The notes under the pieces were generated by a model. It searched no databases. It worked only from the letters and a program-made list of their open reading frames with translations, and was not told the DNA's origin. Of a stretch of DNA of 57,191 bases, positions 1,766-30,099 are shown piece by piece. Origin of the DNA: a virus (Duplodnaviria > Caudoviricetes); the IMG/VR virus record IMGVR_UViG_3300024262_000034, positions 1 through 57,191 of that record; one strand, 5' to 3'. The position numbers and the translations under genes were made by a program. How positions within the stretch are numbered: the first letter of the stretch is position 1; every line of letters starts with the position of its first letter.

Positions 1766-2080
1766 TTAAATAAACTTTATATCAACAGCGTTTTTTGACA
1801 CTAAAATACAATCCTGATAAAATTGAGTTTTATAAGCATTACATATCGTTCCTATTTGTGATTGAATATGGAACGTATCATTTAAAATCAATTCTACAAT
1901 CGCAGTATTTTCTTGAGTATTTTCCCAAAAACCCAAAGCATAAATTATTGTAAAACTCTTAAAACATGGTGTGATATGTTTTTCGCAAAAATCAATAAAA
2001 TCGTCTTTTGAGATAATACCGATTTTTTTTGAGAATAACCCAAAATATAAACGAAAACAGGTTTTTTGTTGACTCGGCAT
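1766..2080 (-). CDS. Putative S-adenosylmethionine lyase (T3 SAMase/Svi3-3-like, DUF3574 PII-like fold)
   Basis: YFGL...FTIIYALGFWENTQENTAIVE...YQDCILV resembles the recalled T3 SAMase segments EEKTVRV and EQDCVLV. Confidence 0.6.
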   Translation of the reverse strand: MPSQQKTCFRLYFGLFSKKIGIISKDDFIDFCEKHITPCFKSFTIIYALGFWENTQENTAIVELILNDTFHIQSQIGTICNAYKTQFYQDCILVSKNAVDIKFI

Positions 2081-2379
2081 TATTTTTTTCCTTATGTTTT
2101 TGACCGGTATAGACTAAAAAACGATTTTACTCTATACCGGTCAATTATTAAAATTGGATATGGTTTTTTTCTAATCCGTATCGTCTTACATCTTTATCGG
2201 CCAATTGACGGTTTTCAGCATATCGACGGAAAAAATCACGTCGATTTTTTCTTTTTTCTGCTAACTGTTTTTCGGATAAATCGCTAAACTTGACACGTTT
2301 TAAATAGTTGCAATTCATTGTTTTTTCCTTTTAAAATAGGGTTGTTTTTTCTTTACATATTCACTGTAATATATAGGTA

Positions 2380-2682
2380 TTACATTGTCAATTGATTTTT
2401 CCAATATTTTACCGATAAACTATTTTTTTCAACCGATTCAATCGCATTAAATAAATACAATTTTTCGCCCGATTCAAAAGTATCGTTATAGTATATTTTT
2501 TGAAATATACTAGATTTTAGAGTATTACCAGAAAACTTTTTATTATGCAATTCCTGTAAAACAAGGAAAACATCGTATAAGTTTTTTCCATTTAATGACA
2601 ATAAAATATCGACCGTGCAAAACTCATTGTCGGTTATAATGTCGATCAATTCACAGCGTATCATTTTATTGTTTTTTAGCAT
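2380..2682 (-). CDS. Hypothetical protein
   Basis: ORF with AAGGAAAAAC-ATG initiation region. Confidence 0.6.
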   Translation of the reverse strand: MLKNNKMIRCELIDIITDNEFCTVDILLSLNGKNLYDVFLVLQELHNKKFSGNTLKSSIFQKIYYNDTFESGEKLYLFNAIESVEKNSLSVKYWKNQLTM

Positions 2683-2694
2683 TGTTTTTCCTTA

Positions 2695-2874
2695 TTATAT
2701 TTTTTGAATTTTTCCTTTTTTGATTATATCTATGGCCAATGTTAAACCGGTAGAAATACCAACATAGTGGTCATATACTCGTTTGTCTTTCGTATGCCGT
2801 GCATGGAAATAAATTTTTTCTTTTGCAATTTTTTTTTGTTCTTTTAGCAGTGCGATAATATTTTGTTTGTCCAT
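2695..2874 (-). CDS. Hypothetical basic protein (59 aa, MDKQNIIALL...)
   Basis: Hand-translated. AAGGA RBS and a promoter at 2919-2947. Confidence 0.5.
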   Translation of the reverse strand: MDKQNIIALLKEQKKIAKEKIYFHARHTKDKRVYDHYVGISTGLTLAIDIIKKGKIQKI

Positions 2875-2966
2875 TGTCTTTTTTCCTTATAATAAGACTG
2901 TTTTTTCTTTACAATATCACTGTAAAATACAAAAAACAAAAAAACAACAAATAAATATAAATTTTT

Positions 2967-2998
2967 TATAATGACACTGCTATACTATAATGACACTG
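2967..2998 (+). promoter_or_regulatory. Plus-strand extended -10 promoter (TGcTATACT) with duplicated TATAATGACACTG, directed into the repeat region
   Basis: 13-bp direct repeat at 2967-2979 and 2986-2998. TGCTATACT at 2978-2986. Confidence 0.45.
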
Positions 2999-3037
2999 GA
3001 AAACAATATCTTATATAGTCCGATAATATCGACGACG

Positions 3038-3307
3038 GAATATACCGTCTGGACCGGTTATGCAGGTTATGCAGGTTATGCAGGTTATGCAGGTTATGCA
3101 GGTTATGCAGGTTATGAAGGTTATGCAGGTTATACCGGCTGGACCGGTTATGCAGGTTGTGCAAATTATGCACGATGTGCCAACTATACCGATTATCGGG
3201 ATTATACCGATTATCGGGATTATAGTGGATATGGTGATTATAACGATAACGCAGAACGTGAGGATTATGCGGATTATGAGAGATGTGCCGATTATGCCGG
3301 TTGTAGG
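3038..3307. repeat. Degenerate 9-bp tandem array (GGTTATGCA grading to GATTATNNN), about 30 units
   Basis: Six exact GGTTATGCA copies at 3056-3109. The 9-bp phase is kept to about 3307. Confidence 0.92.
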
Positions 3308-3560
3308 GCCGCTTCCCTAAAAATCGAGTTATCGGACGAAAGGCCGCTTCCCTAAAAAGTTATCGGACGCTTCCCTAAAAATCCGGCTTCCCTAAAGTTA
3401 TCGGACGCTTCCCTAAAAATCCGGCTTCCCTAAAGTTATCGGACGGAGAGCCGCTTCCCTAAAAAATCCGGCTTCCCGAAAAAAGTCCCGCTTCCCTAAA
3501 ATTCCCCGCCCCCATTGGGATTCCCCGCTTCCCTAAAAAATAAGCCCGCTTCCCTAAAAG
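3308..3560. repeat. Mosaic array of GCTTCCCTAAA (10 exact plus 1 variant) interspersed with GTTATCGGACG (4 copies)
   Basis: Counted directly. Includes an exact 38-bp tandem duplication at 3359-3396 / 3397-3434. Confidence 0.95.
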
Positions 3561-3738
3561 GAAAAACGGGTTTATTCAAGATTCTTACTGGGGATAAGAA
3601 CCTACAATCAAAACAAAAAGTATCACTCACTCAAAAAAATAACCTACTAATCATGTTGCCGAGATTGCTGCCAATAGTGCCACCCAAAAAGCCCCACCAC
3701 AGCCCGTTATTCCATGTATCAGTGAATATTTTCATACC

Positions 3739-4023
3739 TTATTCCTTATTCTTGATTTTTCGTTTTCGTTCAATCACAATTCCGTCATAAAACAATCGGA
3801 CTTCCCCTTTGAACTTTATCCACCATTCCCCCTTTTCCTGATAAACTTCAAAGCCCAAGCCAAGATCAACCGCCGCTTCATTCATACGGCGTTTCGTGGT
3901 GGCAGTCTTCCAGCCGCCTGAGTCAAGCTCAATAATTTTTTCATTAAATCGAACTATATCCGTCCGGGATAGCCGTACCATTGTACCGCCGTTTTCAGTC
4001 TTAATCGTGGTTCCAGTTTTCAT
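3739..4023 (-). CDS. Conserved phage hypothetical protein
   Basis: LDSGGWKTATTKRRMN...VYQEKGEWW motif, recalled from small phage proteins. RBS present. Confidence 0.7.
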   Translation of the reverse strand: MKTGTTIKTENGGTMVRLSRTDIVRFNEKIIELDSGGWKTATTKRRMNEAAVDLGLGFEVYQEKGEWWIKFKGEVRLFYDGIVIERKRKIKNKE

Positions 4024-4027
4024 TTTT

Positions 4028-4348
4028 TTATTTCCTTACCAACCAAAATTTATTTTCAACATCCGTAAACAATGGTTTAATATCCTCATACGATAATTTG
4101 TAACAACCGATTTTATTATCAAGTCGTAAGGGGTTTGTCCACCGATTGCCGTCTTTCAAGCTAATCAAGTTAAACTCACTGTTCCCCGTTTGGGCCAAAA
4201 TGTAATATTCATCATTGTAATATTTATCATCCTGATATTGAAACAGATCACCGATTGAGAAGAGTATTTTCTTACAGCTAGAAAACATTCGGGTTTCTTT
4301 TACTTCAATAGTTAAGGTTTCTTTTACTTCAACAGTTATTTTCATCAT
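4028..4348 (-). CDS. Hypothetical protein
   Basis: ORF in operon context with a short VEVKET/IEVKET duplication. Confidence 0.6.
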   Translation of the reverse strand: MMKITVEVKETLTIEVKETRMFSSCKKILFSIGDLFQYQDDKYYNDEYYILAQTGNSEFNLISLKDGNRWTNPLRLDNKIGCYKLSYEDIKPLFTDVENKFWLVRK

Positions 4349-4496
4349 TCATTCCTTTGTGTAAATTAATTCAGCTATATTCAGAACGGATTCTGCCGAT
4401 TCAGCCGCCAAAGTCCAACCGGCGTTTTCCAGCTTCAACTTTTGGATTTCCGCCTGTTTAATACTTTTTTCATCATCCCAGTCAATCGTGATTTTT

Positions 4497-4805
4497 TTAG
4501 TTTTCATGTTCAAAAGGCTCTTGACTCAACTCGCAGTCACAATATTGACAAATAGGTATGCCGACTTCAGCCAGATCGTCATAGTTGACGATCTTTTCTT
4601 CACCGCACTCAGGGCAGGCCCATACCTTGCTACCGTTGGGTTCTAGGATGATCTGAACATTGTTGACCGATTCAAAGGCATCAATCATGTCATCCACCGT
4701 AGCTTTGACCTCTTCAACATAACCGGCCTTTGTGGGCATGACGATTACGCGGTCATCATCCATCAGGTAATCCACAAAATACTTTTTCATCTGTTTCTTA
4801 TTCAT
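4497..4805 (-). CDS. Hypothetical protein with C-terminal zinc ribbon
   Basis: CPEC...CQYC motif. AAGGA RBS and TTGACC-N17-TATAGT promoter (4877-4849). Confidence 0.7.
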   Translation of the reverse strand: MNKKQMKKYFVDYLMDDDRVIVMPTKAGYVEEVKATVDDMIDAFESVNNVQIILEPNGSKVWACPECGEEKIVNYDDLAEVGIPICQYCDCELSQEPFEHEN

Positions 4806-4873
4806 TCTTTTATTCCTTGTTAAAAGTCTTAATCATTCAACCGTATATACTATAAAATACAATTCAGATCAGG

Positions 4874-5149
4874 TCAAAAAAAATCTTTAAAATATCCGTC
4901 ACTATCCTGAATCGGATTCTGGCCGGTTATAAAACTGGTTCCCCGCAAAGCCAAACCGTCCTTTGTATATCCAGAGATAGCACCAAAGGGGCAAGAGTTT
5001 TTTCTCTGTTTTTCCAGAATGCAAAAGACCGGATAGTTTTTGCTATCCACTTCAGCAACGGCGGCAGATGCTTTCTTGAGACTTTTAAAATTGCCGATAT
5101 GCAATTTATACTCAGGCTTGTTTGATATGGCGTAGAGGGAATAAATCAT
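4874..5149 (-). CDS. Hypothetical protein
   Basis: GGAG RBS, preceded by the conserved promoter-leader at 5163-5212. Confidence 0.65.
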   Translation of the reverse strand: MIYSLYAISNKPEYKLHIGNFKSLKKASAAVAEVDSKNYPVFCILEKQRKNSCPFGAISGYTKDGLALRGTSFITGQNPIQDSDGYFKDFF

Positions 5150-5162
5150 TTTTTTCTCCGTT

Positions 5163-5212
5163 AGTGTTTTTTATATCCACCTATAGTATAAAATACAATC
5201 CAGAAAAAGCAA
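5163..5212 (-). promoter_or_regulatory. Promoter TTGCTT-N16-TATACT plus conserved 18-bp leader
   Basis: -35 at 5207-5212 and -10 at 5185-5190. Leader identical to 440-457. Confidence 0.7.
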
Positions 5213-5218
5213 ATAAAA

Positions 5219-5458
5219 TTAAGAATTTCTTCGAGATAATTCTGCCTCTAATACAACCTTTTCGGCTATACGCCTGTTTAAGAAATCATCCCAATACCCG
5301 TAAAATCCGTTGTTTTCCTTTTTAGCAGTATCTCGGAATTTTTTAGCGTCTTCTATATCATGGGCAGCAATTCGTATTCTCTGCCCAATCCGAGAATTAG
5401 ACGTGTGTTTTGAAAAAGCATGAAACCGCACTCTATCCATTGCTATCTCGAACTGCAT
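5219..5458 (-). CDS. Hypothetical protein
   Basis: ORF with start refined to MQFEIA after AAAGGA. Confidence 0.6.
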   Translation of the reverse strand: MQFEIAMDRVRFHAFSKHTSNSRIGQRIRIAAHDIEDAKKFRDTAKKENNGFYGYWDDFLNRRIAEKVVLEAELSRRNS

Positions 5459-5471
5459 AATATATCCTTTC

Positions 5472-5534
5472 AAAAAAAACCACCGGTGGAAAAGTCAAAA
5501 AAACCACCGGTGGTCAACAAGGAGGGAAAAATGA
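5472..5534 (-). terminator. Terminator-like hairpin (two CCACCGGTGG palindromes plus T8) preceded by an anti-SD tract
   Basis: Minus strand reads TCATTTTTCCCTCCTTG...CCACCGGTGG...CCACCGGTGGTTTTTTTT directly after a stop codon. Confidence 0.6.
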
Positions 5535-6131
5535 TTATCGGTCCATTACTTCCCGCAGGCTAAAAATACCGTCGGTGGCATTTATACCTTTGGGCGTAAT
5601 ACTTTTGTTATGTTTTCGCAGGTGGCCGGATTCAATCAGGCGTTCAACCGCCTCATCCCATTCATACTTTTGGATAGAGGTTTCATCCTGTGCCCGATCA
5701 AAACGGCTCTGGCCGTTATAGGTGGCTTTCATTGATCGGGTGGCAACCAGAACGATCTTTTCTGCAATATCAAGCTCTGCGGCAGGCTCAGTCAACATAA
5801 AAGTAAGGTCTGATTTATTGGCATAAAGTGTTACGCCAGACCACTTACCACAAAAACACCTAAGCTCACCCAATATCATTCGATCAGGCAGTTTGGCCAG
5901 ATAATTCGGGCGATCAGGCTCAAAAATCGGGTGATTGCTGTGGACTGATACCACCTTTTTTTCATCCAAGTGATAAAAGGCGTAAAAATTCCGACTCCCA
6001 CCATCCCAATAACTATGAATATCCGTTGGGATATTATCGGACACGCTGATTTTCTTGCCAGTGTAATCAGGAAAGCAGGCATTTACAATGGCTTTGGTTT
6101 GTTCGTCAATTTTTTCGAGTAAGATATTCAT
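5535..6131 (-). CDS. Conserved phage protein with possible C-terminal winged helix
   Basis: FPDYxGKK and SYWDGGSR motifs. C-terminal LIESGHL...ITPKG pattern. Confidence 0.65.
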   Translation of the reverse strand: MNILLEKIDEQTKAIVNACFPDYTGKKISVSDNIPTDIHSYWDGGSRNFYAFYHLDEKKVVSVHSNHPIFEPDRPNYLAKLPDRMILGELRCFCGKWSGVTLYANKSDLTFMLTEPAAELDIAEKIVLVATRSMKATYNGQSRFDRAQDETSIQKYEWDEAVERLIESGHLRKHNKSITPKGINATDGIFSLREVMDR

Positions 6132-12244: not shown

Positions 12245-12549
12245 TCTTTCGGTTTCGGCCAACAATCATTCCCATCCAGATAGGTTTCCAGCCCGGCTAT
12301 GCAGGGGCAGACATGAAACCCCTTACTGCTTTTCCACTGTTTATCCTGCAACAACAGGTCAATATATTTCTGATACCTCGGCAGTTCGACCATATCATTA
12401 AATATACCGTCGTGATCCATTGACATCACACTGGCAAATTCAAACCCCTCCATCAACCAGCCGATTGTTTTATCAAACCAAACTTGAAAAATAAAGTCCA
12501 ACAGGTCTTCCTTGAGTTCGGACTCTAATATTTTTTTAACTGTAAGCAC
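12241..12549 (-). CDS. Hypothetical acidic protein
   Basis: ORF overlapping both neighbours. Confidence 0.55.
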   Translation of the reverse strand: MLTVKKILESELKEDLLDFIFQVWFDKTIGWLMEGFEFASVMSMDHDGIFNDMVELPRYQKYIDLLLQDKQWKSSKGFHVCPCIAGLETYLDGNDCWPKPKE

Positions 12550-12922
12550 GATAGCGTCCTATTGATATTTCTTGTTCAATCCGTTCCCGACGCAGAGGTG
12601 GAAAAAGTTCAATTGGTTTGTTTAACTCATGGGCCAACTCGAACTCTTCACCTAAGCCTGTTGATTCTTCCCACCCATTGGCATCCAGATATACCAGTTT
12701 ATCTGCCCACTTGATAAATTCTGTATTCATCTTTTGCCAGAAATTCCAATCATGTGGTAGATCAGTTATCACAGCAATGGGGCGGCAGTGAGTAATGGGT
12801 GAATAAACTATGTGACCTTCTTTCATTAGCTGTGCAGCAGCCGTGGTGACTACGAAATATCGAAACCGCATAATTTCTGCATCCGGGCTGCTATACGGCG
12901 TTGCTAAATATATTTTACTCAT
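12536..12922 (-). CDS. Nucleoside 2-deoxyribosyltransferase-like protein (DUF1937)
   Basis: IYLATPYS, VYSPITH and GWEESTGLGEEFELA motifs. Confidence 0.8.
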   Translation of the reverse strand: MSKIYLATPYSSPDAEIMRFRYFVVTTAAAQLMKEGHIVYSPITHCRPIAVITDLPHDWNFWQKMNTEFIKWADKLVYLDANGWEESTGLGEEFELAHELNKPIELFPPLRRERIEQEISIGRYRAYS

Positions 12923-13499
12923 CCTCATCAATCTCCATCTTAAAAGATAAGGGTCCAAAATCAATAATCATTGGCTTGCCTTTATAAACCCGCATGTTTG
13001 ACACCTGATTGTCATACCACTTGGCCTTTAAATGTTTGTAGCAAAGCTGCTCTAGTTGCTCAATATACCGCTTATACACCAGCTTCATTCGCACATATCG
13101 CTTTCCCACCTCATAGACTTCCTTTGGATTGTCTCCGGGTATCCTTTGAGTTTCATAAGCCCAAAGGCCTTTTTTGCCTTTCTGGATAAAGTCAACTATG
13201 TCCGTCGCCCCCATCCAGTCCGTATTGGTGCAAATGACTTCAAACAAGGCCGCCGTTGGAATAACTGGAAAACAAAGTGTCAATACTTCGGGTGCAAAAT
13301 TATGACTATGTGCTATGCTTTGTTTAAGAAAGGCATATTGACAGGACTTTTTAGTTGGGTAGATTTTGAGTGCCGACGTTCTCCCCGTAGGAAAAAATAT
13401 ACACTCACTCCCACCAACAATCGCCGCTTTGTTTGAACAGGGAATGTCTTGGATGATTCCGCTAGGTACGTTCTGTAACAATAATTTTTGTGTTGCCAT
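12915..13499 (-). CDS. Minimal protein-kinase-like (PKL/APH-fold) kinase
   Basis: ALKIY (beta3 Lys), APEV, DxxxxN (DNQVSN) catalytic loop and IIDFG. Confidence 0.6.
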   Translation of the reverse strand: MATQKLLLQNVPSGIIQDIPCSNKAAIVGGSECIFFPTGRTSALKIYPTKKSCQYAFLKQSIAHSHNFAPEVLTLCFPVIPTAALFEVICTNTDWMGATDIVDFIQKGKKGLWAYETQRIPGDNPKEVYEVGKRYVRMKLVYKRYIEQLEQLCYKHLKAKWYDNQVSNMRVYKGKPMIIDFGPLSFKMEIDEDE

Positions 13500-14334: not shown

Positions 14335-14619
14335 TTACCCAGTTGACTCTGGATGGTTAGGGTTTCGAGCTTTGACCACAGTAACATCCAACGGGAGCAA
14401 CTGTTCCCCGGCTGCTTTCCATGCGGCATCAATGAGGTTGTCGTGAAATTCTTCATCATCAATCAGTTCTTTGTACTCACTCTCAAACAGCCATCGGGTA
14501 TAAACAAATTCGTTGTCATTAATCTGTAAGTGAACACACAACGCCGCCACTTGTTCAGGATGCTGGCGGTGCTTCTGAACATATTGAGATTCATAATCAT
14601 ATAGTATAAGTTGGATCAT
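14335..14619 (-). CDS. Hypothetical protein
   Basis: ATGA overlap with the DUF3326 gene. Confidence 0.55.
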   Translation of the reverse strand: MIQLILYDYESQYVQKHRQHPEQVAALCVHLQINDNEFVYTRWLFESEYKELIDDEEFHDNLIDAAWKAAGEQLLPLDVTVVKARNPNHPESTG

Positions 14620-15623
14620 ATAATTCTTGTTTGCTCTAACGGTCTTCTCACAGAAGCCGGAACAACTCCAGCTTTCTTTGCGGCAACCACACCAGCCGCT
14701 TCAAGATAGTTATTCACATATATTATGTTGTGTTCGTGTGCATTAAAAAAAGCGTCATCACTGCGGCACACGCAGGTATTTTCCTCTACGACAATGATAG
14801 GGATGCCAAAAGCACAACATGCGTCATGCGGTGGACCCCATATACCAGCCGGGCTTATTAGGAAGTCCATATCCTGAACCCGTAAATCTCCACCAGTGTG
14901 AACTATCTTAGGGGCAACATGTGCTCCCTTGAAACAACAATGAATGTAACAGGTAGATACCGTTTCGGCTGCCTTGCGGGGATCAACAGCCTGATTGAAT
15001 TCAGACATGTCCATGTTTTCAACCGGGGCATGAATGACTGGCCGGTTCAGTTCACGGGACATAATTTTTGATAGTTGGGCTTCAACCCACCCCCATGGAT
15101 TAACACCACCGGGCTTTTCTAAATAGTCAAACACCACCTCCCGGTCAACCCTGATTGGCGTGTGTACTACCAGCACATCAAACGGAAGATACTGAACCTG
15201 TTTGATTGCTTCTTTGGCGTTCTTGATTGTTCCCGTTGCCAAGCCAGACTGCGGATCAAGGAACCCCTCCATTTTCAGACTACGATTAAGCTCAACAATC
15301 GTAATGTCTGCCCCCATGGTGGCTCTAGCTGCCGATGCAGCATTAACGACAGCCGGGGTGACTTCATTCACGGCCAATAGAATTTTATTGCCCTTGGCTT
15401 TTTTCAGTTCAATCTTACCATCTAAAAACCGAGTCAATATTGAACCCTCAACATAAAGCATGTTGTCAGTCATTTCATTGATGTCGGCTGCATTAACCAC
15501 GTTGGGGTGAACGATCAAATTGTCACACACCGCCGCTATCAGTTTGGCGGCTGGTGTGGCATCACCTGAATGACCACCAATCTCTGCTCCAAGTCCTGTG
15601 GGTATGATAAATACACAATTCAT
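14616..15623 (-). CDS. DUF3326 family protein
   Basis: IIPTGLGAEIGGHSGDA, HPNVVNAA, LYVEG, GxNPWGxVEA, HAP, DPRKAAE and NYLEAAG motifs. Confidence 0.88.
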   Translation of the reverse strand: MNCVFIIPTGLGAEIGGHSGDATPAAKLIAAVCDNLIVHPNVVNAADINEMTDNMLYVEGSILTRFLDGKIELKKAKGNKILLAVNEVTPAVVNAASAARATMGADITIVELNRSLKMEGFLDPQSGLATGTIKNAKEAIKQVQYLPFDVLVVHTPIRVDREVVFDYLEKPGGVNPWGWVEAQLSKIMSRELNRPVIHAPVENMDMSEFNQAVDPRKAAETVSTCYIHCCFKGAHVAPKIVHTGGDLRVQDMDFLISPAGIWGPPHDACCAFGIPIIVVEENTCVCRSDDAFFNAHEHNIIYVNNYLEAAGVVAAKKAGVVPASVRRPLEQTRII

Positions 15624-15625
15624 AA

Positions 15626-16012
15626 TTATAACCTCGGAATAATTTCATAACGACATTTTTGAGCACCAAACCACTGTTTACTAAAATCCATAGCAACAAA
15701 AGTATCAAACTCTTTACAGGAAAAAATGTTGAGAAATACTTTTTTCAATCTATCCAGACAATGGATAGTAATGTTACTTGTTTTAATAAACTGGATTGCT
15801 GAAGTTCCAATTAAGTGATCTTCTTCATACCCGGCAACATCAGGATGTGTAAGGTCATCCCACCAATGAACTTCGACTCGTTCCATATCAATCAGATCAC
15901 ACAGTTTGACAAAATACTCTCCAATACATTCTCGGTTAAATGTCTTGGGGTCACAACCCTGTAAATCCAGTATTAATTCTTTACCATACGTTTCCATAGT
16001 TTTATCCCTCAT
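15626..16012 (-). CDS. speD: S-adenosylmethionine decarboxylase proenzyme (class 1B, phage type)
   Basis: GKELILDL, GTSAIQFIKTSNITIH (pyruvoyl cleavage site T-S) and NIFSCKEFD. Confidence 0.88.
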   Translation of the reverse strand: MRDKTMETYGKELILDLQGCDPKTFNRECIGEYFVKLCDLIDMERVEVHWWDDLTHPDVAGYEEDHLIGTSAIQFIKTSNITIHCLDRLKKVFLNIFSCKEFDTFVAMDFSKQWFGAQKCRYEIIPRL

Positions 16013-16271
16013 GTGTCATTTTACAAACTATATTAAAACACAAATCATTTAAAAACTCTTCCTCAGCAACTTCAGGCTGAACAACTTTAGGGCAATTCGG
16101 GCATTGGACTTCATCACAAATTTGCTTCCGCCATTGGGGGTGGTACACAAAAAAATCGTATTTAACTGTAAATTCTTTTAAGCAGTCATGGCACAAGAAT
16201 TTCCCCGTAATTTTATTGTTACGCTCATAGGGATCAGAAATTTGTTGTATATTTATCAGTTCATAACTCAA
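16002..16271 (-). CDS. Small zinc-ribbon protein
   Basis: CHDC...CPNC motif. Confidence 0.55.
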   Translation of the reverse strand: MSYELINIQQISDPYERNNKITGKFLCHDCLKEFTVKYDFFVYHPQWRKQICDEVQCPNCPKVVQPEVAEEEFLNDLCFNIVCKMTHEG

Positions 16272-18664
16272 AACGGAATCTCCTCATTTACCTGTGTCGG
16301 AGCATCAACAATATCTTCAACAATGTCCCAGTTGTGGGGGCCACCAAAGTGAGTGTCCCAATGCTCCCGGCAGGTTTTCAGGTCTGGAATCAAATAGTAA
16401 CGGGGTCGTTCCTGAATCTTCGGGGGGCCACCATCTAAGGGCATGACTTCAACCGCACCACCACCCTGTTTGTTTTTGGGGAATTCACCCGGCAATGCTT
16501 TTTGTAAAAACTGGCCAAGCCTTGTGGCTGTGCTGCGGCGATTGCTGGATGAGAATGTTCGCATGTAACCGGTGTAGCTCAAGAGCATGTGGTTCTTGAG
16601 AACCATTGTTCGCCATTCAGCATCCCCATCAAGCAGGCGACCATCCTGTAATTTATTGTACCACCACTCTTCCTCAGTAGTCATGCTGTATAGCTTCTGT
16701 TCTTGTAAGGCTTTTGTCTTAGGGATGTCTCGCACATTATACTCAGACAGATCATAGTGCATCAAGTGATGTAACAATGCTTCATAACCACCGGATTCCA
16801 GTTCCGCAATAATATCTTTAAAATAGGCAGAATCTTGCATCTTCGTATCGGCAACATCCAATACAAAAAATCGACGATCATCCAGACCGGCAGGCACTAC
16901 CCAGTTGTTGTTAGAGGCCATGATGACATGCAGGCAGGAGCGACAAACGATTACATCTATTCCCTTAGCTTCGATAGCCAACTTATCTTCCGTCACCAAT
17001 GTCTTTAAAATGGATTCATTCTTAACATCCCCCGCATAGAATGCCTCATCCGCAAACAGGAAGACACAGCTTCGCAGATGAGAATTGAAATTACCGATCA
17101 GGTGTTTGGGGTTGGTCACTTGTAGGAAGTGCCGACCAAATAACTTTCCAATTGAACTTGCAAATACACCCTTACCCGCCCCGGCTCGACCCCGCATTAC
17201 CACCGCCGTATGCCCTTGTTGTTCTGGAATTTGTACGGCGGTAGCCAACCAGCCCATTAAATAATTAAAACATTTTTCATCATTGTTACAGATATTGTGT
17301 TGTACATGTTGTAAGAATTTTTCGCAGTCACCCTTTTTCGGCTCATACTTGAATCCATACCACATATTATATATGCCCTTTTCTTCTAGGTCTTTGTTAG
17401 GTATGAATTCGATGTTGTTATACTGCCGCCTCGCCGGTTGATCGAGCCACCATGAACCTTTTTTCTTTTTAATGGTTTCTATTTCGCCATCCTTATTCTT
17501 GATCTTAATGTCCACAGTCTCATTATCATGCTGTTTTTTAAAATCGGCAAAGGCTTGAAAAACCAACTCCGGCCTATCCAATGAATAGTCATACTGCTCA
17601 TAAACCACCATGCACTTGCCAGAGATTGTGACCACGGCATACTTCTCATTCATTCTGACAAGTTCTGGATGGACAACCGCTTCCCTTGCCCGGAGAATTT
17701 GTCGCTTAGCACAACGATCTGGATTTTTTTGTGCCAGCACATGTGCAGAAATTCCCCAATCTGGATCGGTAATGATGCTATATATGGTATCATCAGGAAC
17801 TTTAGCCACAACCAAACCGCATACAGCAGCAAATAACGCCTCAGACTTGGAAGCATACCGGTCAGGGTCTTCGTGGTCCTGACCTGTGGCAATAATCCGC
17901 TTTATTCTCTTAGAAAGACATTCCGGCAATTCAAGATCAATATCTTCTATCCTCTTGATATTACCAGAGATATGAACCTTACGGCTGTCTGTAAATCCTG
18001 TGGACCCATCATCCACCTCAGCCGCCATGTTGAACGTTTTTATATCATAAATGACATCATTAAAGTAGATAACTTTCGCTAAAGCCTCTTTGCGTCCACG
18101 TTTACGTTTGTTCTCATCCGGGCGGTTGATCGTGCCGGGCAGACGCATTATCCTATCCACATTATGACACTTATCACCCCCCAACTCCTGCTCCAGATAT
18201 TTGTTATAACGCTTGGCCTGCTCATACTTATCTGCCTGACCGTTAATCTCAACGGGGTCTTCAAGCCTCCAGAATGCCTGATAGCCGCCGCCAGAGAAGA
18301 TTATGCAGGTTGGGGCCGGAATGTCCCCCGGTGGCTGTCTGAGCAAGGATAGGGCACGTTCCTGCTCTTTTAGCAGGTCTTCCCCGCCCCTTGGGTCAAC
18401 ATCGACATGCAACCAAGCCATTTCCTTGATGTCTTCTCGTTGGGCCTTGGATTTTATGGCATTGATTACCGGATTGACATGAAAGTAGATATTACGCTCT
18501 GCCCCATACTCTTCCAGCCATGCTGCGGCGGCCTCTGTGGTGTCGGGAAAGAAGGTATCGGCCCGGAACACCTTCTTATCTGGATGAATGGCTGATAACG
18601 CCCATGGTCCATCTGGAGCGAACTTGCCAAGAAACTCAATTGATGCTATATAGTTTGGTTCCAT
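16268..18664 (-). CDS. Primase-helicase (RepB'-type AEP primase plus DUF5906/D5-like SF3 helicase)
   Basis: HVDVD, SGGGYQAFW and RIMRLPGT, plus Walker A GRAGAGKG, FADE and DDRRF. The ORF could start as far as 18739. Confidence 0.9.
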   Translation of the reverse strand: MEPNYIASIEFLGKFAPDGPWALSAIHPDKKVFRADTFFPDTTEAAAAWLEEYGAERNIYFHVNPVINAIKSKAQREDIKEMAWLHVDVDPRGGEDLLKEQERALSLLRQPPGDIPAPTCIIFSGGGYQAFWRLEDPVEINGQADKYEQAKRYNKYLEQELGGDKCHNVDRIMRLPGTINRPDENKRKRGRKEALAKVIYFNDVIYDIKTFNMAAEVDDGSTGFTDSRKVHISGNIKRIEDIDLELPECLSKRIKRIIATGQDHEDPDRYASKSEALFAAVCGLVVAKVPDDTIYSIITDPDWGISAHVLAQKNPDRCAKRQILRAREAVVHPELVRMNEKYAVVTISGKCMVVYEQYDYSLDRPELVFQAFADFKKQHDNETVDIKIKNKDGEIETIKKKKGSWWLDQPARRQYNNIEFIPNKDLEEKGIYNMWYGFKYEPKKGDCEKFLQHVQHNICNNDEKCFNYLMGWLATAVQIPEQQGHTAVVMRGRAGAGKGVFASSIGKLFGRHFLQVTNPKHLIGNFNSHLRSCVFLFADEAFYAGDVKNESILKTLVTEDKLAIEAKGIDVIVCRSCLHVIMASNNNWVVPAGLDDRRFFVLDVADTKMQDSAYFKDIIAELESGGYEALLHHLMHYDLSEYNVRDIPKTKALQEQKLYSMTTEEEWWYNKLQDGRLLDGDAEWRTMVLKNHMLLSYTGYMRTFSSSNRRSTATRLGQFLQKALPGEFPKNKQGGGAVEVMPLDGGPPKIQERPRYYLIPDLKTCREHWDTHFGGPHNWDIVEDIVDAPTQVNEEIPF

Positions 18665-19088
18665 ATCTTCCAGCTTTAAGTATATCATGTAGTTCCGTCT
18701 TGTCAAGCCCTTTTTCCCAGTATTTATGGCAGTTGTCAAGCAGTGCTTGACGGCTCACCCGACCAACCTTGAGTGCCTGTTCACCCGTAAACAGTAGCCA
18801 TTCATCCGTAGCCTCAACACGCAGCAGCAGCCAGCAGGAGCCACCACGGAGCCAACGGCGGTATAGGAACACCCTCTGGTGCGGCTTATAGTGCGGAATC
18901 CGCACCGGCGTTGCCGCCCGTTTGGGCCATTCAGGTAGTCGTTTCAGTTCGATCTCCCCACCAATATAGTTGGTGTCCGGGTATCCAATCTGCCCACCCC
19001 GATAGACATCGTTCTCGATGGCAACAGGGTCCAACTTTCGGATTGCCTTGTGTACGTCCTGCCGCATTTTTGATTCTGGTTTTGGCAT
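18636..19088 (-). CDS. PD-(D/E)xK nuclease, putative Holliday junction resolvase
   Basis: ESxM, GYPD, IELK and Q...RGG motifs. Located beside the primase as in YuA-like phages. Confidence 0.75.
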   Translation of the reverse strand: MPKPESKMRQDVHKAIRKLDPVAIENDVYRGGQIGYPDTNYIGGEIELKRLPEWPKRAATPVRIPHYKPHQRVFLYRRWLRGGSCWLLLRVEATDEWLLFTGEQALKVGRVSRQALLDNCHKYWEKGLDKTELHDILKAGRYGTKLYSIN

Positions 19089-20103: not shown

Positions 20104-20697
20104 TTATAAATTACTCACGACTCGATACAACTCATTCGGATGGGGTGGTATATCATTGGGGTGTAAAAAATCCTTCAATATACCAAAATGCACATCAAAC
20201 CGTTCTGTGGTTTCACTGCAATAGTCGGCATTCTTACTTGGCCTAATAATATGCAGCCGTTGTGAAATAAATCCCAATACCCCCACCACATCGTACTTCC
20301 GGCCAGACTGAGTTTCACACCATTGAATAGCAGTGTGCTGTTTTTCCACAGACATGTGGAACTTAACTTCAGTCCACTTTTGAGGCTCAACATCAATCAG
20401 CTTGAGTCTTACACCTTTGTCCAACAAAGAGGATGACCAGCACAGCCGCAGGTGGCCTCCCATGATAGCAGCATACAAACTCCCGTAGTGCTCGAACTGT
20501 CCCTTAGATCGCAATAACAGTTTTTCGTACACATTAGATGGCTCAGGAGTAGCCAAGAGTCTTTGGACATATTGCCATGAAGCCATTTTGCTAAACATAA
20601 CTTCTGAATGAGAGTAGGGACCACCGGTAAACCAAGCAATAAACTTACTACCCCATGTTCCGTACTTCCAACCCTTATAAAAAATATTTGATACCAT
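20104..20697 (-). CDS. Permuted papain-like (NlpC/P60 YaeF/YiiX-type) protein
   Basis: GPYSHSE precedes GRKYD...YCSE, so His comes before Cys. Confidence 0.72.
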   Translation of the reverse strand: MVSNIFYKGWKYGTWGSKFIAWFTGGPYSHSEVMFSKMASWQYVQRLLATPEPSNVYEKLLLRSKGQFEHYGSLYAAIMGGHLRLCWSSSLLDKGVRLKLIDVEPQKWTEVKFHMSVEKQHTAIQWCETQSGRKYDVVGVLGFISQRLHIIRPSKNADYCSETTERFDVHFGILKDFLHPNDIPPHPNELYRVVSNL

Positions 20698-28017: not shown

Positions 28018-28194
28018 CTATTTGAGCATCGCATCATCCTTTCTTTTATTCCAACAGCAATTTTTATATTTCCTACCAGACTTACACGGGCATGGATCGT
28101 TGCGGCTTATTTTATGACCTCTTCGTACCAACTGCCCGGAAATTATATACTTTGTGTTCAGTTTGGGGCACACCCGATCTTTATTCTCGACCAT
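28018..28194 (-). CDS. SEC-C motif protein
   Basis: [19 protein letters not shown] motif. Confidence 0.75.
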
Positions 28195-28864
28195 GAATGA
28201 ATCTCCAAATAGCATACGCTGCCATACACACTTCAGACGCAATGCTCTTACCCATGTCTGACTCCGGCGTGCGTAGGCTGGAAATACCTACAATGTTGTC
28301 GTGGTAGAGTATAGGTCCACCAGAGTTGCCGGGGTTAATATCTAAGTCTGTACATAAATAATGCTGGCTATTTTGTCGAGCTTTATGTCCGTAGCTATGC
28401 CACAGCCGGACCTTATAGGGAAAACCAATGGCTTCGAGCTTATTACCAACAGGAACTTTCTTCGATGGATATAAATCCAACCAGTGGTGCTTCGGGGGAT
28501 GCTTTAATTGAATAATGGCAACGTCATACTTTTCCAGCAACAACGTCTTGTTTGGGTCAATCTTATACTGGTTTGCACCAACAGAGACGGTAATGACTGA
28601 AGGAATCTTGAACTTCGTGCCGAACAACTCCAACTCAAAATCATCAATGATGTGTGCTGCCGTAAGTATCACACCATCAGGACCAATGAATACGCCTGAA
28701 CCACTGGATGTCTCGGTGGATATTTCGACCACAGCCTCTTCATTCAAAGGTTGTGTGAAATGAAAACCTGTATAACTACACACTGTTAAAGCTATACATA
28801 TCACTAAAGCTATTCCAGTAATTGATAAAGCAATCGTACCAAAATTTACGTTATCATTTTTCAC
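28181..28864 (-). CDS. Membrane-anchored trypsin-like serine protease
   Basis: N-terminal TM segment. GSG, TAAH, DVA and PGNSGGP catalytic-triad motifs. Confidence 0.88.
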
Positions 28865-30099
28865 ACCACCACCGTCACCCTTTCTGCGGCTCTGGTAATA
28901 GCCGTGTACAACCATTTTTTAGCATTCTGCTTGAAGCAAGCACTCTCATCAAACACCACCACTGAATCCCACTGGCTGCCCTGAGCTTTATGACATGTCA
29001 GAGCATAACCAAAATCAAACTCTTCAGCGTCTTTGTGTTCCCATGGGCTGATCTCGGAGCCTTTGCCGAGGAAGTGGAGTGTATGAACCATACACTCCAC
29101 GGACTCATCATTATCATCAGCCCGGACTTGCAGGGCAAGCTGGTCCATCTTGCCGTTCATCAGTTGATCATACCTATCATCAGACTTTAAATCTTCCTCA
29201 TACTTAACGTCGGTGACTGTCCAGAGACTTCCGTTAAGCAGGCCAAGATCGTGGTTGTTGCGAAGACACACCACCTTGTCTGTCAACATTGGTAGTGGGT
29301 TCATAAACTGCCCGTGTTTACGAATCTTGGCATTGGCGGCGTACCGGGTGGTGTTCTTACCAACTATCACTTGATCAAACTTCGAGACAGCTTCAACCCC
29401 AAGTGTGCCCCTCTTGACAACATGCGATTCACCATATTGGCCAAGCACCAGACCCCCGTTGGCCCTTACGTCGGTGGCCAGCCGCAGAATAGGGTTGTCC
29501 CTCGCCTGACGATGTATCTCTTCCAACTGAAAGTCCGGCGTTCTTTGGGTAAAAAACCCACGTCCCCTGACAGGTGGTAGCTGGCCGGGATCACCCAACA
29601 CCAAGACTTTGCTCCCGAAGCTCAACAGGTCTGTGGCCATAAACTCATCAATCATAGAGCACTCATCCAGAATAACCAGAGAGGCTTCCCGGACGACGCT
29701 ATCCATGTTGAGGTTGAAGGCGGGCTTCTTGACGTTCTCACTCTCCAGCTTGATCTGGCGTTCAAGCTCGTGAATATCTTTCTCCGGGGAATTCATGGAA
29801 AACAGGTACTTCAGTTTATCCTGAAGCTCTTTCAGACGAGACTTGCATTTATTCTTAGGCAGATAGATCAGTTTGTGGAGGGTGTTTGCCGGACAGCCTT
29901 TTTTATTCAGGACGTGTGCTGCCTTACCAGTAAAGGCGGCAAAGAGAACTGTGCCCTTGACACCCTCGGCAAAATACTTTGCCAGTGTGGTTTTTCCCGT
30001 TCCAGCATAGCCTGCCAGATAAAAGAGTTGGTCCTCTGGTCGAGACATCCAATCTTTGACGGCGTTCAGGGCGTTGTCTTGCTCTGCGGTTATTTCCAT
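28861..30099 (-). CDS. RecD/Dda-like SF1B DNA helicase
   Basis: GYAGTGKT, DECSM, GDPGQLPPV, HRQ, TCHKAQGS and YTAITRA motifs. Confidence 0.92.
   Translation of the reverse strand: MEITAEQDNALNAVKDWMSRPEDQLFYLAGYAGTGKTTLAKYFAEGVKGTVLFAAFTGKAAHVLNKKGCPANTLHKLIYLPKNKCKSRLKELQDKLKYLFSMNSPEKDIHELERQIKLESENVKKPAFNLNMDSVVREASLVILDECSMIDEFMATDLLSFGSKVLVLGDPGQLPPVRGRGFFTQRTPDFQLEEIHRQARDNPILRLATDVRANGGLVLGQYGESHVVKRGTLGVEAVSKFDQVIVGKNTTRYAANAKIRKHGQFMNPLPMLTDKVVCLRNNHDLGLLNGSLWTVTDVKYEEDLKSDDRYDQLMNGKMDQLALQVRADDNDESVECMVHTLHFLGKGSEISPWEHKDAEEFDFGYALTCHKAQGSQWDSVVVFDESACFKQNAKKWLYTAITRAAERVTVVV

Follow-up and report, generated by a model that had tools for sequence, protein, structure and literature searches.

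The 57,191-base virus record IMGVR_UViG_3300024262_000034 (Duplodnaviria; Caudoviricetes), which in its full length is the window analyzed here, encodes a homolog of SpeD, the S-adenosylmethionine decarboxylase (AdoMetDC), directly followed by a DUF3326 protein, and we consider it probable that the two form a coupled two-step amine-forming module. The genes and their junction are located as follows.

15626..16012, minus strand: candidate proenzyme of a SpeD-fold pyruvoyl-dependent decarboxylase, 128 aa as listed, matching PF02675 (AdoMet_dc) and phrog_3125

14616..15623, minus strand: DUF3326 protein, short form, 335 aa, matching PF11805 end to end

15624..15635, minus strand: speD/DUF3326 junction, read from the sequence, with TAA (15628-15626), a 2-nt spacer (15625-15624) and GAGG (15635-15632)

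The initial annotation, made by a model from the sequence, stated that only 2 nt separate the end of speD from a full-length DUF3326 gene, and this is borne out by the open reading frames (ORFs), the Pfam matches and the junction sequence TAA-TT-ATG. A Shine-Dalgarno-like GAGG lies inside the 3' end of speD, 8 nt ahead of the DUF3326 ATG, a layout which suggests that translation of the two genes is coupled, and no promoter-like or terminator-like site was found between them on the minus strand. The start of speD itself is likely the second ATG, at 15997, giving a protein of 123 aa, since this codon is preceded by GAGGG 8 nt upstream, avoids an overlap with the upstream ORF and coincides with the beginning of the homologs, while residues 1-3 of the 128-aa form were modeled with a predicted local distance difference test (pLDDT) score <50. 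Likewise, the absence of a spermidine synthase from the window was upheld, as neither Pfam matches among the 75 other ORFs nor a six-frame search of the 57-kb record with PF01564 revealed one. The window is the whole record, which is linear and was estimated by CheckV to be 89% complete, so roughly one tenth of the genome may be missing from it. As nothing of the record lies beyond the window, the refuting condition of a speE outside the window does not apply.

The pairing of the two genes recurs in both viruses and cells. Viral contigs yielded 66 DUF3326 loci when scanned with an alignment (such scans were needed, as a single-protein scan gave 4), and the cellular set comprised the best 80 of at least 548 DUF3326 relatives in genomes of many phyla. 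A homolog of the window SpeD was found within 4 kb and on the same strand in 55 of the 66 viral loci, upstream of DUF3326 in 54 and with an aligned gap of <50 nt in 43, and directly upstream on the same strand in 33 of the 80 cellular loci. Wider gaps arise where long-form DUF3326 brings its N-terminal extension, or where a GNAT gene (L049/L051 type) or a homing endonuclease intervenes; the homing-endonuclease genes, which separate the two partners in two viral loci (L010:810-1592 and L014:3384-3995), are of the GIY-YIG/NUMOD3 type. Antisense artefacts aside, any other gene family was common to at most 6 of the 66 viral loci. Furthermore, SpeD and DUF3326 are fused in the proteins P0207, P0233, and P0181. 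Hence, the adjacency is not unique to this genome, as the initial annotation had allowed it might be, and recurrent same-strand adjacency together with the fusions supports a functional unit. The same counts correct the statement that DUF3326 is known mainly from cyanobacteria and plastids; of 8000 candidates scored for the family, 3781 were relatives at E<=1e-3, and the SpeD-clade profile, which also reaches other SpeD homologs, matched 849 representative clusters at E<=1e-10. Among GenBank phages, tblastn at E<=1e-5 gave no match for either window protein. In viral contigs of 100-140 kb, the SpeD domain was also observed as the C-terminal end of a very long frame (L055/L056:261-3980 and L053:2119-3981; P0142 and P0143, 1233-1240 aa), the first ~1100 residues of which have no family match and which DUF3326 directly follows.

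SpeD is only one of the decarboxylases found with DUF3326. A decarboxylase adjoins DUF3326 in 111 of the 146 viral and cellular loci, some of the other 35 being cut at a contig end, and these enzymes belong to four unrelated folds. In 15 cellular loci the gene directly upstream encodes an alanine-racemase-fold (AR-fold) decarboxylase dependent on pyridoxal phosphate (PLP), and all four of these partners that were tested had nspC (TIGR01047) as their best match (E 1.7e-71 to 1.6e-87), with 241-294 bits against an equivalog cut-off of 409 bits and only 74-99 bits for lysA. A phosphatidylserine-decarboxylase-like (PSD-like) pyruvoyl enzyme stands beside DUF3326 in seven viral loci lacking SpeD, and an Orn/Lys/Arg decarboxylase (OKR_DC_1, AAT fold) in one locus, while NspC-like decarboxylases are fused to DUF3326 in P0123 (831 aa, 12 members) and P0124. 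A FastTree phylogeny of 136 DUF3326 domains resolved two clades with full support, a long-form clade that is mostly cellular and a short-form clade that is mostly viral. Since SpeD-type and NspC-type partners interleave among close relatives within the long-form clade, with at least 10 partner changes, the different decarboxylases would appear to do the same job. The short-form clade includes the window DUF3326, whose nearest row (L005) shares 64% identity with it, and nested within this clade is a group of stand-alone DUF3326 proteins, mostly from Planctomycetota. In addition, four loci from Dehalococcoidia (L135, L140, L145, and L146) have an unknown protein of ~475 aa ahead of the NspC-type pair.

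The window SpeD matched PF02675 over residues 13-127 (profile positions 2-106 of 107; E 2.4e-13, 50.8 bits against a cut-off of 25) and phrog_3125 with an E value of 8.4e-14. According to its AlphaFold2 (AF2) model (pLDDT 92.3) the fold is the alpha-beta sandwich of class 1b AdoMetDC, the best match in the PDB being AdoMetDC of T. maritima (1vr7_A; Foldseek TM 0.77/0.82, rmsd 2.1 A, E 4.9e-9). Residues S79, H84, and C99 align to S63, H68, and C83 of that enzyme and do not vary among 48 sequences of the clade; from this retained Ser/His/Cys set the SpeD homolog is probably an active pyruvoyl enzyme, with a predicted self-cleavage site at Thr78-Ser79. In contrast, features typical of AdoMetDC are missing. 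The clade carries Thr-Ser-Asn where AdoMetDC has Glu-Ser-His, and its motif 'HTLD' or 'HCLD' lacks the Pro of the AdoMetDC motif 'HT(W/Y)PE', a residue that separates AdoMetDC from arginine decarboxylase according to Li et al. 2023 (PMC10407285). Against TIGR03330, the AdoMetDC equivalog, the window SpeD scored 25.1 bits with a cut-off of 75.65. Nor is an unshared role of this SpeD supported, as three of five cellular genomes hold both a DUF3326-linked SpeD (40-59 bits for PF02675) and a separate canonical one (89-137 bits), which SpeE adjoins in two of the three. The SpeD tree (FastTree, 122 columns) was poorly resolved. This partner family may represent a further neofunctionalisation of AdoMetDC.

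The window DUF3326 protein matched PF11805 over residues 3-325 (profile positions 2-336 of 337; E 5.4e-67, 226.6 bits against 25) and lacks the extra N-terminal domain of ~85-95 aa found in most cellular forms; it has no PHROG family and no Pfam match besides PF11805. Its AF2 model is confident (pLDDT 91.3, predicted TM score 0.89) and consists of two Rossmann-like alpha/beta domains, of which domain 1 comprises residues 1-75 and 245-325 and domain 2 is inserted at residues 76-243. Conserved in the family are a polar set (T9, N41, N44, D47, E50, Y57, Y167, E181, H198, E220, and E308), the nearly invariant C229 and K232, and a Gly-rich N-terminal loop PTGxGxxxGG. The structural comparison that the initial annotation had proposed thus yielded a confident model, but no clear solved relative by Foldseek or VIA. 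Searching the sequence against the PDB gave nothing significant (best E 0.52), Foldseek gave no convincing match in the PDB (best TM 0.30) or BFVD (TM <=0.21), and in the ESM Atlas, DUF3326 itself apart, a named look-alike was not found. The best VIA match reached Z 10.2 over 127 residues, and the VIA matches were generically Rossmann-like, including GT-B C-domains and UDP-GlcNAc 2-epimerase (Z 9-10) and LOG/MCP-like proteins (9.0), with saccharopine dehydrogenase/reductase (Z 8.6 for 5l76 and 8.2 for 1e5l) within the same generic range; residues 76-243 gave lumazine-synthase-like or Asp/Glu-racemase-like matches. A complex prediction of SpeD with DUF3326 scored 0.00, which is under the mark and evidence neither way.

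The sole experimental anchor for DUF3326 found by our full-text literature search is a preprint on pavettamine biosynthesis, in which PavB is a DUF3326 protein (bioRxiv 10.64898/2026.06.12.731819). As reported there, N-(5-aminopentyl)cadaverine was seen only when both pavA and pavB were present, cadaverine occurred in all Pav strains including the deletion, and the decarboxylase domain of PavA is annotated as carboxynorspermidine decarboxylase. These genetics point to an amine-amine coupling with decarboxylation beyond the simple supply of a diamine. The fusions of both families lie in a similar field: DUF3326 is fused to an NNMT/PNMT-type methyltransferase plus SET, and SpeD to GNAT or to a SpeE/methyltransferase-like domain. 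The latter fusions (P0125-P0139 and P0141; metagenome, 281-299 aa) are relatives of the window SpeD with 50-59% identity whose C-terminal domain has the class I methyltransferase fold and matches spermidine synthase at a borderline level (PF01564, E 5e-5); none was present in the viral contigs fetched, and a single-protein viral scan with P0131 was also empty. Taken with the NspC-like partners and the PavB genetics, the GNAT, NNMT-like and SpeE-like fusions support the role in polyamine or amine metabolism that had been put forward for the pair, but not its proposed link to decarboxylated S-adenosylmethionine (dcSAM).

Beyond the conserved pairing, the fusions, the exchange of partner decarboxylases and the retained catalytic residues, all of which are observed, we infer a reaction, a sequence of steps, a cofactor and a product for the pair as follows. 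The two enzymes would constitute a self-contained cassette, drawing on host metabolites to produce an amine of the polyamine type independently of S-adenosylmethionine (SAM). The SpeD homolog would be a pyruvoyl-dependent amino-acid decarboxylase that has lost its activity on SAM, and DUF3326 would be its C-N bond-forming partner, probably with a nucleotide cofactor such as NAD(P)(H). In a first step DUF3326 would couple an amine with a unit derived from an amino acid; the product would be an N-(amino-carboxyalkyl)amine ('carboxy-polyamine'), from which the SpeD homolog would then strip the alpha-carboxyl to leave a triamine. This preferred order, with DUF3326 acting first and decarboxylation following without dcSAM, is modeled on the logic of carboxyspermidine dehydrogenase and decarboxylase, and we propose it only tentatively. 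It is favored because the alternative partner is NspC-like, because of the Pav genetics, and because Sacchrp_dh_C, the domain of carboxyspermidine dehydrogenase (CASDH) and homospermidine synthase (HSS), was found in none of five NspC-type genomes, although an nspC-like gene is present in all five; in each of these the sole strong nspC-like gene is the neighbor of DUF3326, and a control search recovered Sacchrp_dh_C in three known holders. It is also favored because the 3-amino-3-carboxypropyl group on the ammonium of carboxyspermidine would resemble the same group on the sulfonium of AdoMet.

Several observations weigh against a module of this kind. The structural matches of DUF3326 are generic Rossmann-like ones (Z 8-10), and its Gly-rich loop differs from the classical dinucleotide motif. 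SpeD-clade genes stand alone in 19 of the 55 viral loci obtained by a scan centered on SpeD, DUF3326 being downstream in 36; several of the stand-alone genes neighbor those for the clamp loader and RegA in replication modules of the T4-like type, and in three T4-like loci (L177, L182, and L184) a DUF4406 gene is directly upstream. The closest cellular relatives of the window DUF3326 belong to the stand-alone, mostly planctomycetal clade, and five genomes with stand-alone DUF3326 hold neither a SpeD-family gene nor a strong nspC-like gene, which implies that DUF3326 can work without a dedicated decarboxylase. SpeE is present in four to five of the five NspC-type genomes, and among the stand-alone genomes four of five have a deoxyhypusine-synthase-like (DHS-like) gene and the fifth has Sacchrp_dh_C matches. 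We therefore rejected the pair as the sole triamine route, since most genomes examined have SpeE or DHS-like genes, and its product may instead be a special-purpose amine. In Planctomycetota and Verrucomicrobiota, stand-alone short-form DUF3326 (L072, L074, L075, L081, L092, and neighbors) often follows glycoside hydrolase genes on the same strand (GH127, rhamnosidase, fucosidase, and apiosidase-like, with a 4-nt overlap in L081), which may be chance in genomes rich in carbohydrate-active enzymes or a hint of a different role of DUF3326.

Some of the same observations fit a reversed order, in which the SpeD homolog acts on ornithine (or arginine) as a pyruvoyl decarboxylase of the SpeDC/SpeDA type and supplies a diamine that DUF3326 converts, for example by coupling two diamines in the manner of a homospermidine synthase. 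According to PMC10407285, four residues of the central region, Gln, Thr, Phe, and Tyr, are diagnostic of SpeDC, the pyruvoyl ornithine decarboxylases. The consensus of the window-SpeD clade, 'AVQFIxTSNITIHTLD...VYINIFSC', holds these residue types, compared by type and not by position, and this is a further point against the preferred order and, with the missing AdoMetDC Pro, in favor of decarboxylation first; in the window SpeD itself, Q74, F75, and T78 are present, but Phe takes the place of the consensus Tyr. The best full-length SpeD matches among GenBank phages at E<=10 are Sinorhizobium phage SpeDs (24% identity), which group with the ornithine decarboxylase clade according to PMC9992855. 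The stand-alone genes of both families and the single DUF3326 locus with an Orn/Lys/Arg decarboxylase likewise agree with decarboxylation first. However, this order would require nspC-like and PSD-like enzymes to form diamines, for which we know of no precedent, and formation of the Pav triamine needs PavA although cadaverine is present without it. Moreover, the DHS-like homospermidine synthase candidates in the stand-alone genomes mean that a redundant HSS analog is not required there, leaving DUF3326 as a redundant homospermidine synthase unsupported. On balance, we regard decarboxylation before DUF3326 action as rather unlikely.

Another explanation places the pair in phage-host conflict, where it would make or remove a small amine in anti-phage defense, together with Septu in cells, and the phage copy would serve counter-defense or takeover. 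PtuA and PtuB (PADLOC E 1e-43 to 1e-55) form one same-strand string with the decarboxylase and DUF3326 in ten cellular loci of different phyla (L080, L087, L091 at 2112-6095, L095, L108, L116, L117, L120, L125, and L131); nine have the order PtuA-PtuB-decarboxylase-DUF3326, with an NspC-like enzyme replacing SpeD in L116, and L131 has the order reversed. In six further loci (L100, L121 at 3093-4319, L128, L130, L141, and L142) a protein of ~400 aa, which matched no Pfam, NCBIfam, or PADLOC family, takes the PtuA/PtuB place directly upstream of the pair. The missing N-terminal domain of the phage DUF3326 also agrees with such a role. On the other hand, the arrangement is limited to 16 of the 48 cellular loci with a SpeD or NspC-like partner, no PADLOC model matches the pair, and co-location on mobile islands could account for the linkage to Septu. 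In the window, a pair of AAA_15/AAA_21 and HNH proteins, as in Septu, was not found among 80 ORFs scanned with Pfam. We consider a conflict module improbable, and it would be compatible with the amine-forming module and not exclusive of it. A more specific version, in which the dedicated amine of the pair is integral to a Septu-type operon and phages captured a trimmed copy to make or mimic it, thereby disarming or pre-empting the defense, is a similarly long shot; if true, DUF3326 would be both a new family of C-N bond-forming polyamine enzymes and a player in phage-host conflict.

The dcSAM pathway suggested by the initial annotation, in which SpeD makes dcSAM and DUF3326 is a new aminopropyl-type transferase using it on polyamines, nucleotides, or DNA, is very improbable. 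In its favor, SpeD has the AdoMetDC fold and catalytic residues, close SpeD relatives are fused to the SpeE/methyltransferase-like domain (barely past the PF01564 cut-off), and domain 1 of DUF3326 resembles nucleotide-binding Rossmann-like domains. Nevertheless, the Thr-Ser motif in place of Glu-Ser, the loss of the Pro, the low TIGR03330 score and the swap to other decarboxylases make dcSAM probably not the shared intermediate of the pair; the same DUF3326 lineage exchanges SpeD for NspC-like, PSD-like, or OKR enzymes, none of which, to our knowledge, acts on SAM. The separate canonical SpeD of the cellular genomes, with SpeE adjoining in two, and the Pav product, which is built of C5 units and not of aminopropyl groups, argue in the same direction. 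That SpeD does not act on SAM, which had been named as a refutation of the pathway, is thus probably true as judged from the residues and scores.

Least credible of all is a SAM sink, in which SpeD would destroy SAM beside a SAM lyase to suppress SAM-dependent defenses and DUF3326 would be unrelated or dispose of dcSAM, since the features that speak against AdoMetDC identity apply here as well, a conserved and sometimes fused partner is not needed for a sink, and the ORF taken for the lyase matches DUF3574 (E 3.1e-13) and only weakly, below the threshold, S-AdoMet_lyase (E 4.5e-4, 20.6 bits with a cut-off of 28) and belongs to a PHROG family without function, leaving the second sink alongside a lyase unsupported.

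1766-2080, minus strand: putative 'lyase' ORF, 104 aa, with a DUF3574 match and a sub-threshold S-AdoMet_lyase match

The pair lies in a head-to-tail string after the primase gene (16268-18739) and a small Zn-ribbon-like ORF. The record is that of a siphovirus-type phage encoding tape measure, tail tube, and major capsid proteins, as well as a family A DNA polymerase, ribonucleotide reductase, ThyX, dCMP deaminase, and proteins similar to gp33 and gp34 of Pam3. A DUF1937/DUF4406 protein encoded at 12536-12964 (minus strand) matches a PHROG family named 'nucleoside 2-deoxyribosyltransferase'. Three odd ORFs were also noted: an auxiliary gene similar to enoyl-CoA hydratase (20104-20697, minus strand; phrog_1128), one for a trypsin-like peptidase (28181-28915, minus strand), and one with collagen repeats (2990-3355, plus strand), the last being among the very few plus-strand ORFs in the window.

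Polyamine biosynthesis is regarded as well mapped, and a widespread family tied to decarboxylases of four unrelated folds has the pattern of a missing pathway step. If the product were identified, DUF3326 would gain an assigned function, the presence of the pair in many uncultured phages and the toxin precursor step of pavettamine biosynthesis would be explained, and a link between an amine metabolite and Septu defense could be put to the test.

Compared with known systems, the window SpeD resembles the characterized SpeD homologs of the SpeDC/SpeDA kind in its fold and in keeping Ser, His, and Cys, and both kinds occur in phages that lack SpeE or next to a canonical SpeD as an additional copy; the consensus of the window-SpeD clade shows the residue types called diagnostic of SpeDC, compared by type only. 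In contrast to the window SpeD, the characterized homologs cluster with SpeE, HSS, SpeY, or CASDH and carboxyspermidine decarboxylase (CASDC), and neither of the two papers describing them names DUF3326, which the full-text search found in only three others. The pair also resembles the two-gene modules of CASDH or carboxynorspermidine dehydrogenase (CANSDH) with CASDC/NspC, which combine an enzyme forming a C-N bond with a decarboxylase for the last step, all the more as NspC-like decarboxylases partner DUF3326 in separate loci and in fusions. However, in Pfam DUF3326 showed no match to Sacchrp_dh, and its structural similarity to that family (Z 8.2-8.6) is generic, and the phage decarboxylase has the pyruvoyl SpeD fold, unlike NspC with its PLP fold. 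Among phages, Microcystis phage MaAM05 likewise encodes polyamine auxiliary genes including SpeD homologs, and the window SpeD shares 30% identity with the MaAM05 protein. Its cluster (L203; MW495066.1, 246764-250108) has the order speH_2-speH_1-speE-speB, that is, two SpeD homologs, a classical SpeE aminopropyltransferase, and an agmatinase, and differs from the pair in having no DUF3326. PavA-PavB is similar in combining a DUF3326 protein with a decarboxylase-domain protein, both of which are needed for the triamine intermediate, and PavB is likened to the window DUF3326 by family only; it differs in that PavA is a 1119-aa protein with Rieske and AR-fold decarboxylase parts, a JmjC-like hydroxylase follows, and the host is a plant-associated bacterium of the Burkholderiaceae. 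In conclusion, the conserved SpeD-DUF3326 pair is real and unpublished, and it is a variant on the theme of phage-encoded and alternative polyamine pathways.

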